Below, piece by piece: positions 11,234-40,052 of a DNA stretch of 64,000 bases. Under the pieces are notes generated by a model. The model was not told where the DNA came from. It saw nothing but the letters and a program-made list of their open reading frames with translations, and did no database searches. The stretch's first letter is position 1. The number at the start of each line of letters is the position of its first letter. This stretch comes from Escherichia coli. GTDB lineage: Bacteria > Pseudomonadota > Gammaproteobacteria > Enterobacterales > Enterobacteriaceae. The DNA lies in NCBI RefSeq assembly GCF_003334405.1, contig NZ_QOWM01000003.1; one strand, 5' to 3'. The position numbers and the translations under genes were made by a program.

Positions 11234-12068
<835 letters not shown>

Positions 12069-12376
12069 ATCCCTGAACAGTATAAAAAACGAACGATAAC
12101 CGTGATCTGTTGAGCGGGTGACAGTGCGCATAGCGTTGTGCTAAAAATATTGTATATATTCACATTAATTATGGGATTTAAATTACTAAAACTGATAAAT
12201 ATATATTCTAAATAGCAACTGGGTTATTCCTTAGCAATTAATGATTACATTGTAATAAATCATATTCTTTATCGATTGTTTCAGGCAGTGTTGTGCCTAA
12301 TTATGCAAGCGGTTAATTCGTTGTATATTTAATTATACAATGATTTCGGTGTCCAGTAATTTAATTAGAGGAATCT

Positions 12377-13477
12377 ATGCGAGGGAAAAAACGCATTGGG
12401 TTATTGTTTTTGCTGATAGCGGTTGTGGTTGGTGGCGGCGGGTTATTGCTGGCGCAAAAAGCCTTACATAAAACGTCGGATACAGCATTTTGCCTTTCCT
12501 GCCACTCGATGAGTAAACCTTTTGAGGAATATCAGGGAACTGTCCACTTTTCGAACCAGAAAGGGATACGTGCGGAATGTGCCGATTGCCATATTCCAAA
12601 GTCAGGGATGGATTATTTATTTGCTAAATTAAAGGCATCTAAAGATATTTATCATGAATTTGTTAGCGGCAAAATAGACAGTGACGATAAGTTCGAAGCT
12701 CATCGCCAGGAAATGGCCGAAACAGTATGGAAAGAATTAAAAGCCACTGACTCTGCAACGTGCCGTAGTTGCCATTCTTTTGATGCCATGGATATTGCCT
12801 CGCAAAGTGAATCTGCGCAGAAAATGCATAACAAAGCACAAAAGGACAGCGAAACCTGTATCGATTGTCATAAAGGCATTGCCCATTTTCCGCCAGAAAT
12901 AAAAATGGATGACAACGCGGCGCATGAGCTGGAAAGTCAGGCCGCTACTTCAGTTACTAATGGCGCACATATTTATCCTTTCAAAACTTCTCACATAGGC
13001 GAGCTGGCTACCGTGAATCCTGGAACCGATCTCACCGTCGTTGATGCCAGTGGCAAACAGCCGATCGTTCTGTTGCAGGGTTATCAAATGCAGGGCAGTG
13101 AAAACACGCTCTACCTGGCGGCAGGTCAACGGCTGGCGCTAGCCACATTAAGTGAAGAAGGTATCAAGGCGCTCACTGTAAACGGGGAATGGCAGGCTGA
13201 CGAATACGGCAATCAATGGCGTCAGGCGTCTTTACAGGGTGCGCTTACCGATCCCGCATTAGCGGACCGTAAACCGCTATGGCAATACGCTGAAAAACTT
13301 GACGATACCTATTGCGCTGGTTGTCATGCCCCTATTGCCGCCGACCATTACACCGTCAATGCGTGGCCGTCCATTGCCAAAGGAATGGGGGCACGAACCA
13401 GCATGAGCGAAAACGAACTGGACATTTTAACGCGGTATTTCCAGTACAACGCCAAAGATATTACCGAGAAACAGTGA
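12377..13477 (+). CDS. torY: Pentahaem c-type cytochrome TorY (NapC/NirT family, 366 aa)
   Basis: 366-aa ORF with N-terminal TM helix and multiple CxxCH haem-binding motifs (CLSCH, CADCH, CRSCH, CIDCH, CAGCH). Confidence 0.93.
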
Positions 13478-23132: not shown

Positions 23133-23654
23133 ATGGCTATTATTCTCGGCATTGATCCGGGTTCGCGCGTGACCGGCTACGGCGTCATCCGCCAGGTAGG
23201 TAGGCAACTGTCCTACCTGGGTAGCGGATGCATCCGCACCAAAGTGGATGATTTACCGTCTCGTCTGAAACTCATCTATGCGGGCGTGACGGAAATCATC
23301 ACCCAGTTCCAGCCTGATTATTTCGCCATTGAACAAGTCTTTATGGCAAAGAACGCTGACTCAGCCCTGAAACTGGGCCAGGCGCGCGGCGTGGCGATTG
23401 TGGCGGCGGTGAATCAGGAGTTGCCAGTATTTGAATACGCGGCACGTCAGGTAAAGCAAACGGTGGTAGGTATTGGCAGTGCCGAAAAAAGCCAGGTGCA
23501 GCATATGGTCCGCACCTTGCTGAAACTGCCCGCTAATCCACAGGCGGATGCCGCCGATGCGCTGGCGATTGCTATCACCCACTGCCACGTTAGTCAGAAT
23601 GCGATGCAGATGAGCGAATCGCGGCTGAACCTGGCGAGAGGGCGACTGCGTTAA
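23133..23654 (+). CDS. ruvC: Holliday junction resolvase RuvC (173 aa)
   Basis: ORF 23130..23654; [18 protein letters not shown]. Confidence 0.95.
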
Positions 23655-23655
23655 G

Positions 23656-24357
23656 TTATACCGCCTCGGTCAGTTCCGGCTGAGGCGTTTCCACTCCCTC
23701 CGCATGAATCAACACCAAACCCGGATGATGCCACAAACTGGCTGGCGTGACGGTTTTACGCTCCCACGGAATAGAACCCAGGAACCAGAATTTCCAGAAA
23801 GTGAGTTTTGCATTCGGATTGCTATTTAACAATTCTCCAAACGTCTCTATTTCACCCACCGGAATACATAGCGCTTCTTTATAAATATCAAAAACAAATT
23901 TTGAACAGAACTGGCGCGAAGATTCGTATTTAAAACCGGTGTGGTAAAGTTTGCGTAGCCGGGAGGGAACCTGTTCAACAATTCGTTGTTTTTGTCGTTC
24001 TGTCAGCCCAGCGTCTAATCGCTTTATAGCATAGCGTTGATTAGACGAACGTTTAATAAAACGAGATAGCGTGGTGATGGTTGAAAGGGGAACCCGGCTT
24101 TCTGCAACCAGGAAGTCTTCACCGTTATGACCGATAATGATCCCGACGTGATTACTCCAGCAATTTGATGCAGCTGATATTTGACCAAATAAGGCAGCAC
24201 CTATACATGTAAAGACGATATCTCCAATTTCATATTCAGCAGGGTAATTAATATTCACGTTGTCATTCCATTGAAATAGATACAAATATACGTAATAGCA
24301 TAAAAAATTTATTTTTTCAGGAGGCGCAATGTATATTTTTATTACGCATTTCTTCAC
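23656..24357 (-). CDS. yebB: YebB (YiiX/permuted papain-like family hypothetical protein); start codon uncertain
   Basis: 233-aa ORF convergent with ruvC and divergent from ruvA; true start may be internal. Confidence 0.7.
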
Positions 24358-24465
24358 TGAATATGTAATATTAAAATATTTGCTTCCAATATAACCTGTA
24401 GAATAAATTATACTGTGCCATTTTTCAGTTCATCGAGACACCTCGCAAGTTTTCTTCATCCTTCG

Positions 24466-24485
24466 CTGGATATCTATCCAGCATT
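24466..24485. promoter_or_regulatory. LexA (SOS) box upstream of ruvAB
   Basis: cgCTGgatatctatcCAGca: CTG-N10-CAG palindrome about 50 nt upstream of the ruvA start. Confidence 0.75.
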
Positions 24486-24532
24486 TTTTTATCATACAGC
24501 ATTATCTTTGATTCATTACGCAGGAGCGTCAT

Positions 24533-25144
24533 GTGATAGGCAGACTCAGAGGCATCATCATTGAAAAACAACCCCCGCTGGTGTTAATTGAAGTGGGCGG
24601 CGTAGGCTATGAAGTGCATATGCCGATGACCTGTTTTTATGAACTCCCTGAAGCGGGTCAGGAAGCGATCGTTTTCACCCACTTTGTGGTGCGTGAAGAC
24701 GCGCAACTGCTGTACGGTTTTAACAATAAACAAGAGCGCACATTGTTCAAAGAGTTGATCAAAACCAACGGCGTCGGCCCGAAGTTGGCGCTGGCGATCC
24801 TCTCCGGAATGTCAGCGCAGCAGTTCGTTAATGCCGTTGAGCGTGAAGAAGTGGGGGCACTGGTGAAACTGCCGGGTATTGGCAAAAAAACCGCCGAACG
24901 CTTGATTGTTGAAATGAAAGACCGATTTAAAGGTTTGCATGGCGATCTCTTTACGCCAGCCGCCGACCTGGTACTCACGTCTCCTGCCAGCCCGGCGACC
25001 GACGATGCTGAACAAGAAGCGGTTGCCGCGCTGGTGGCGCTGGGCTATAAACCACAAGAAGCAAGCCGCATGGTGAGCAAAATCGCTCGCCCTGACGCCA
25101 GCAGTGAAACTTTAATTCGCGAAGCCCTACGCGCCGCGTTATGA
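24533..25144 (+). CDS. ruvA: Holliday junction branch-migration protein RuvA (203 aa), GTG start
   Basis: 203-aa ORF (V)[27 protein letters not shown]. Confidence 0.95.
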
Positions 25145-25149
25145 GGTAA

Positions 25150-26163
<1,014 letters not shown>

Positions 26164-39724: not shown

Positions 39725-39744
39725 TACTGTATAAAATCACAGTT
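39725..39744. promoter_or_regulatory. LexA (SOS) box upstream of yebG
   Basis: taCTGtataaaatcaCAGtt: CTG-N10-CAG about 20 nt upstream of the yebG start. Confidence 0.7.
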
Positions 39745-39761: not shown

Positions 39762-40052
39762 ATGGCGGTTGAAGTTAAATACGTAGTCATTCGTGAGGGC
39801 GAAGAGAAAATGTCGTTTACCAGCAAAAAGGAAGCCGATGCTTATGACAAAATGCTTGATACGGCGGATCTGCTTGACACCTGGCTGACAAATTCTCCAG
39901 TGCAAATGGAAGACGAGCAACGTGAAGCCCTTTCGCTATGGCTGGCAGAACAAAAAGATGTGCTGAGCACCATTCTGAAAACCGGCAAATTACCGTCCCC
40001 ACAGGTCGTCGGTGCTGAATCCGAAGAGGAAGATGCCTCACACGCGGCCTGA
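39762..40052 (+). CDS. yebG: DNA damage-inducible protein YebG (96 aa)
   Basis: 96-aa ORF MAVEVKYVVIREGEEKMSFTSKKEADAYDKMLD. Confidence 0.9.
   Translation: MAVEVKYVVIREGEEKMSFTSKKEADAYDKMLDTADLLDTWLTNSPVQMEDEQREALSLWLAEQKDVLSTILKTGKLPSPQVVGAESEEEDASHAA

Follow-up and report, generated by a model that had tools for sequence, protein, structure and literature searches.

The ruvAB operon of E. coli is a textbook case of LexA control and is treated as a core SOS operon in reviews. In a tiling-array study, a LexA motif emerged from the upstream regions of UV-induced genes, ruvA among them, and TTCGCTGGATATCTATCCAGCATTT is listed there as the motif of ruvA (Thomassen et al. 2010, PMC3009722, Table 4). 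Treatment with AZT induces ruvA 2.0-fold and ruvB 2.8-fold, with a dependence on lexA (LexA cleavage) of 1.9- and 2.6-fold, respectively (PMC11228462). A fusion of the ruvA promoter to GFP is also UV-inducible and follows a biphasic profile; its authors considered additional, LexA-independent regulation of ruvA possible and suspected an alternative sigma factor (Culyba et al.). In Salmonella, ruvA falls below the threshold for induction by nalidixic acid and was put on the gene list by hand.

The box described here lies within a window of 64,000 nucleotides, which is the whole stretch of DNA that was analysed. The sequence around the box is that of E. coli and is 100% identical to K-12 MG1655, and a 501-nt query around it has a match in each of 5,426 complete E. 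coli genomes. A 40-nt BLAST query of the box gave no match in these genomes, which almost certainly reflects low-complexity masking of its T-run and not a missing box, given the matches of the longer query. The element is already known: compared to the published K-12 ruvAB SOS box (Thomassen et al. 2010, Table 4; heterology index in Courcelle et al. 2001), it has the identical sequence at the same locus, with the same downstream genes, and there is no difference between the two. An earlier, sequence-only reading of this DNA had called ruvAB SOS-inducible, and the published AZT- and lexA-dependent induction and the UV-inducible ruvA reporter bear this out.

Two other kinds of described elements share features with the ruvA box. 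The LexA box of cho (ydjQ), CACTGGATAGATAACCAGCA, has the same unusual CTGGATA left half-site and the same CCAGCA right end, and it scores 19.3 bits compared to 18.6 bits for the ruvA box with the matrix described below. However, it belongs to a different gene, is not a perfect palindrome with 8-bp arms, and has no T-run after it in the published 25-mer. The second kind is the canonical Rho-independent terminator. Like these terminators, the ruvA box can form a stem-loop with a 4-nt loop and a run of seven T (T7) directly after it, and in most relatives the stem has 9–10 pairs and lies a few nucleotides after a stop codon. Unlike them, the stem in E. coli is limited to 7 pairs, 4 of which are GC, and it coincides with no mapped 3′ end in K-12. 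In addition, the sequence of the ruvA stem is constrained as a protein-binding site, and no covariation test is therefore possible.

Sequence and score of the ruvA box

The 20-mer CGCTGGATATCTATCCAGCA (cgCTGgatatctatcCAGca) is present at 24464–24483, which corresponds to NC_000913.3 1946026–1946045, and the ruvA GTG at 24533 lies 49 nt downstream of its end. Its CTG-N10-CAG core, CTGGATATCTATCCAG, occupies 24466–24481 and has an A/T-rich centre, while the full dyad is an 8+2+8 palindrome, GCTGGATA-TC-TATCCAGC. The sequence-only reading had described a perfect CTG-N10-CAG box at 24466–24485. The 20-mer that it quoted is real and the perfect core is found within the ruvA core promoter, but the coordinates are 2 nt off, as 24466–24485 reads CTGGATATCTATCCAGCATT, which starts at the CTG and lies 2 nt too far to the right. 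Two features depart from the TACTGT consensus, namely the outer nucleotides (CG..CA) and position 4 of each half-site, which is G/C.

Matches to the bare CTG-N10-CAG pattern are frequent in the window (25, compared to 13.6 ± 3.6 in shuffled sequences), and a perfect match to it alone is therefore weak proof of an operator. Because the bare pattern is uninformative, a full LexA matrix was built from 17 published E. coli operators, with the ruvA site left out (Thomassen et al. 2010, PMC3009722, Table 4). With this leave-one-out matrix the ruvA box scores 18.6 bits. It ranks 13th among the 18 published E. coli operators when each is scored in the same leave-one-out manner, and it is the second-best 20-mer of the 64-kb window, behind the yebG box. 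The matrix scoring that the sequence-only reading had suggested thus gives the box a score that falls among those of validated E. coli operators. The exact matrix P value is 3e-7 per position (7e-8 with an AT-rich background), and about 0.02 matches at this score are expected per 64 kb, or about 5e-5 per promoter region of 150 nt. In mononucleotide shuffles of the whole window, the score was reached anywhere in 6 of 200.

Judged at the level of sequence, the ruvA box has all of the defining features of an E. coli-type LexA operator (TACTG(TA)5CAGTA) that were tested. Its heterology index (HI, Berg–von Hippel) was computed here as about 8.5. An HI of 9.19 was reportedly given for the same box by Fernandez de Henestrosa et al. 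in 2000. The value tabulated in PMC11228462 from Courcelle 2001 is 7.6. These HI values describe a mid-to-weak yet functional operator.

Other candidate sites are also present in the window. The best match to the LexA matrix is TACTGTATAAAATCACAGTT at 39725–39744, which is identical to the published yebG LexA box and scores 22.1 bits with a matrix whose training set included the yebG operator. It is found 17 nt upstream of a 96-aa ORF (39762–40052, +) and constitutes a second, stronger SOS operator in the window. Another 20-mer, TATTGTATATATTCACATTA at 12148–12167, reaches 16 bits, but TTG and CAT replace CTG and CAG. It is intergenic, lying between a 248-aa ORF (11243–11989) and a 366-aa ORF (12377–13477), which from their map position are presumably cutC and torY, and its resemblance to an operator is probably a by-product of AT-richness. 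Two candidates close to the ruvA box were rejected. The first, a possible second SOS box at 24413–24428 (TACTGTGCCATTTTTCAGTT), 51 nt upstream, scores 7.1 bits, has lost its CTG in another E. coli lineage (L010) and is attributed to chance. The second, an overlapping downstream site at 24482–24501, scores 9.2 bits, and its CAG is not conserved across genera.

Promoter geometry and conservation in Enterobacteriaceae

The local gene order is yebC, ruvC, yebB (on the opposite strand), yobI, ruvA and ruvB. In a consensus scan of the region, the only sigma-70-like promoter is that of ruvA (Table 1), and the same −35/−10 architecture is seen in Salmonella (locus L046). Two ruvA transcription start sites (TSSs) have been mapped at U00096.2 positions 1944032 and 1944029 (Kim et al. 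2012, PMC3415461, Table S1), and these were placed in the window by matching the printed flanking sequences. Counted from the TSS at 24501, the operator extends from −37 to −18, and counted from that at 24504, from −40 to −21; it overlies the −35 hexamer and half of the spacer. Repression by promoter occlusion classically relies on such a position.

Table 1. Features of the ruvA promoter region and operon, in window coordinates
Feature	Position	Strand	Basis
LexA operator (SOS box) of ruvAB, CGCTGGATATCTATCCAGCA	24464..24483	.	Sequence, matrix, published motif table, conservation
Potential RNA hairpin from the operator palindrome, followed by the T-run	24465..24482	+	7-bp stem, 4-nt loop, −10.6 kcal/mol
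ruvA −35 hexamer TGGATA, within the operator	24467..24472	+	Consensus scan (9/12 match, spacer of 17 nt); position fits the mapped TSSs
Weak divergent TSS assigned to yebB	24484	-	Kim 2012 Table S1, position 1944049 (+), 5 reads
T7 run: promoter spacer and U-tract of the terminator-shaped hairpin	24484..24490	+	Scan, folds; almost invariant across genera
ruvA −10 hexamer TATCAT	24490..24495	+	Consensus scan; conserved; −11 to −6 relative to TSS 24501
Two ruvA TSSs	24501 and 24504, both A	+	Kim et al. 2012 Table S1; 5′ UTR of 32 and 29 nt
ruvA (203 aa, starts with GTG), leading gene of the regulated operon	24533..25144	+	
ruvB, 336 aa, second gene of the operon	25153..26163	+	

The divergent TSS assigned to yebB has a 226-nt 5′ UTR according to Kim 2012, and its transcript would run antisense to yobI. 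The divergent −10, TATGAT, is the reverse complement of ATCATA at 24491–24496 and overlaps the ruvA −10 by 5 nt; the ruvA and yebB promoters are therefore back-to-back, with starts 17 nt apart, and the LexA box is located at +2 to +21 of the divergent transcript. The yobI gene itself (24329–24394, 21 codons) ends 70 nt upstream of the box and is annotated in RefSeq as a stress-response small protein. It is not conserved in the other E. coli lineage L010, where its start region is missing, and it is absent outside loci of the yebB type.

Relatives of RuvA were scanned in one genome per species, which gave 80 Enterobacteriaceae loci. The 79 loci analysed are those with enough upstream DNA, namely 78 of the 80 and the K-12 locus (L001). 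In all 79, the orthologous box outscores every other 20-mer in the 300 nt upstream of ruvA, and CTGGAT-N4-ATCCAG is unchanged. The distance from the box to the GTG is 47–52 nt in 77 loci and 175 nt in the remaining 2. Only the central 4 nt and the two outermost nucleotides at either end of the box vary, with outer flanks of GG..CC in most genera and CG..CA in E. coli. An alignment of 77 upstream regions gives a column identity of 1.0 for the arms and 0.80 for the centre, compared to 0.69 for the 100 nt preceding the box and 0.83 for the stretch from the box to the start codon. Moreover, the right arm, ATCCAG, varies no more than the left arm does, though it forms part of the spacer and not of the −35. 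Equal invariance of both arms is what a symmetric dimeric binder such as a repressor predicts.

The 2 loci with the longer distance, in Pseudenterobacter timonensis (L040, 1035–1161) and Enterobacter sp. RIT418 (L077), carry an insert of about 125 nt whose ends are inverted, imperfectly, over 25 nt. It sits between the ruvA −10 region and the RBS and pushes the LexA box away from the GTG. The core of this insert (GTGAATCCCCAGGAGCTTACA...) is one that we take to resemble an ERIC/IRU repeat.

A terminator-shaped hairpin at the operator

The operator palindrome and the T7 run may together have a second purpose, as a Rho-independent terminator that insulates ruvAB from a co-directional upstream transcript. 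This transcript would be that of ruvC in most Enterobacteriaceae and possibly that of yobI in E. coli, and termination would keep the expression of ruvAB dependent on its own LexA-controlled promoter. Such a dual-purpose element comes close to an even chance of being real, but falls slightly short of it.

Several features point to termination. In E. coli, a scan flags the site as terminator-like (7 pairs, loop of 4, ATTTTTTTAT), and the 7-bp hairpin folds with −10.6 kcal/mol and is directly followed by the T7 run. The Salmonella site is called terminator-like more strongly, with 10 pairs, 5 of them GC, a T-run, and a start 8 nt after the ruvC TAA. The stop codon of ruvC ends 6–14 nt before the CTG in 50 of the 79 loci, and 49 of these 50 have a 9-bp stem (with the GG..CC extension, −14 kcal/mol) followed by a T-run, although the loci are phylogenetically related and the counts are not independent. 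At the ruvC-adjacent loci, the gap between ruvC and ruvA is too short for any other terminator. In addition, the GG..CC flanks that extend the stem are non-consensus for LexA and bring the matrix score down to 14.9 bits, and the T7 run is almost invariant despite being promoter spacer.

Other evidence argues against termination or limits it. Term-seq in K-12 has no curated 3′ end at the hairpin, in 19460xx or 19461xx (Adams 2021, PMC7815308). The primary ruvC 3′ end in these data is at K-12 1946817, or 23692 in the window, so that ruvC ends at a site of its own, and a Rho-dependent termination region lies about 75 nt beyond it, at K-12 1946742 (PMC7815308). Among the relatives, the inner 6 pairs never vary, and no compensatory change backs an RNA stem, while the outer pairs change one-sidedly and without compensation (GG..CC, AT..CC, CG..CA). 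Some loci (L015, L027, L050 and L058) have a co-directional upstream ORF but a stem of only 6 bp with −6.2 kcal/mol. Finally, conservation of the T-run could also reflect promoter function or the divergent TSS at 24484.

Some observations on the upstream neighbourhood may be set beside these. In E. coli, the only co-directional gene near the hairpin on its upstream side is yobI, which ends 70 nt before it; ruvC is about 810 nt away. The ruvC 3′ end at 23692 is 38 nt past the ruvC stop codon and inside the 3′ end of the convergent yebB gene, and it is preceded by a GCCTCGG...CTGAGGC hairpin (window 23642–23702). The cargo of the ruvC–ruvA junction differs by genus and consists of nothing (50 loci), divergent yebB, or co-directional ORFs (loci L003–L081). 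These co-directional ORFs are either about 220–270 aa long and membrane-protein-like or about 290 aa long and SDR-like, and in E. coli the cargo is yebB with yobI. Shared sequence resumes at the CTGGAT arm, and the spot to the left of 24466 thus resembles a hotspot for insertions beside the hairpin. A link between the length of the stem and the orientation of the gene before it is seen at the ruvC-adjacent loci but breaks down at several loci with co-directional inserts, and it was therefore not given strong weight. The Salmonella SOS paper PMC9879122 contains nothing on insulation between ruvC and ruvA.

A terminator role in E. coli is unsupported. In species in which ruvC is adjacent to ruvA, the stems, T-runs and short gaps make such a role plausible, though still somewhat less probable than its absence. 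A broader proposal is put forward tentatively and with a little less confidence again. In most Enterobacteriaceae, the LexA operator of ruvAB may also be the intrinsic terminator of the nudB-yebC-ruvC unit, with a single block of 30 bp acting as operator, −35, hairpin and U-tract/spacer, and with a recurrent insertion site at its left edge. Insertion in E. coli would then have been accompanied by loss of the outer stem pairs and by a rise in the LexA match from 14.9 to 18.4 bits.

SOS control of ruvAB

It is very improbable that the palindrome is the site of another regulator, or is kept only as a −35 element, with LexA control of ruvAB located elsewhere. Culyba et al. did suspect additional LexA-independent regulation of ruvA, and the −35 hexamer lies inside the left arm. 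However, no better-scoring 20-mer exists within 300 nt upstream in any of the 79 loci, and the neighbouring candidates are weak and not conserved (24482–24501, 9.2 bits; 24411–24430, 7.1 bits). A role as −35 alone is countered by the right arm, ATCCAG, which lies in the spacer and is equally invariant, and by the symmetry of the site, which fits a dimeric repressor. That the palindrome arose by chance in AT-rich intergenic DNA and regulates nothing can be dismissed with near certainty. CTG-N10-CAG alone is indeed seen 25 times in the window, and the copy 51 nt upstream (24413–24428) is evidently chance, but the ruvA box combines a P value of 3e-7 per position (7e-8 with an AT-rich background), arms that are invariant in 79 loci while the flanks diverge, fixed spacing to the mapped TSS and the GTG, and LexA-dependent induction documented in the literature.

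The 20-bp palindrome at 24464–24483 is almost certainly the LexA operator of ruvAB. Its sequence, score, position and conservation come from the present analysis, and the induction and the motif listing come from the literature. Several points weigh against the LexA operator as the best explanation. Induction is weak, at about 2-fold; ruvA stayed below the nalidixic-acid threshold in Salmonella; the reporter response was biphasic, with an alternative sigma factor suspected; the outer positions and position 4 of the half-sites are off the TACTGT consensus; and the invariance of the arms could also stem from the −35 hexamer or from the hairpin.

As a LexA operator, the palindrome would have its two CTG/CAG half-sites bound by a LexA dimer. 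As the −35 hexamer and part of the spacer lie within the operator, bound LexA would block RNA polymerase at the ruvA promoter. Once DNA is damaged, RecA filaments would bring about self-cleavage of LexA, and the operator would be vacated; both the occlusion and this release follow established knowledge of the SOS response. Transcription of ruvA and ruvB would then increase modestly, by about 2–3-fold. Since the affinity of the operator is middling, repression would be shallow and induction early and modest.

The result for the ruvA box mainly confirms that a genuine SOS operator can be recognised from sequence alone. The overlap of operator and terminator, if confirmed, would be a compact case of one palindrome that serves both a DNA-binding protein and an RNA structure, which is a modest refinement rather than a novel type of system. 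Such an overlap would also account for the transcriptional separation of ruvC, which is not under SOS control, from the adjacent ruvAB, which is.
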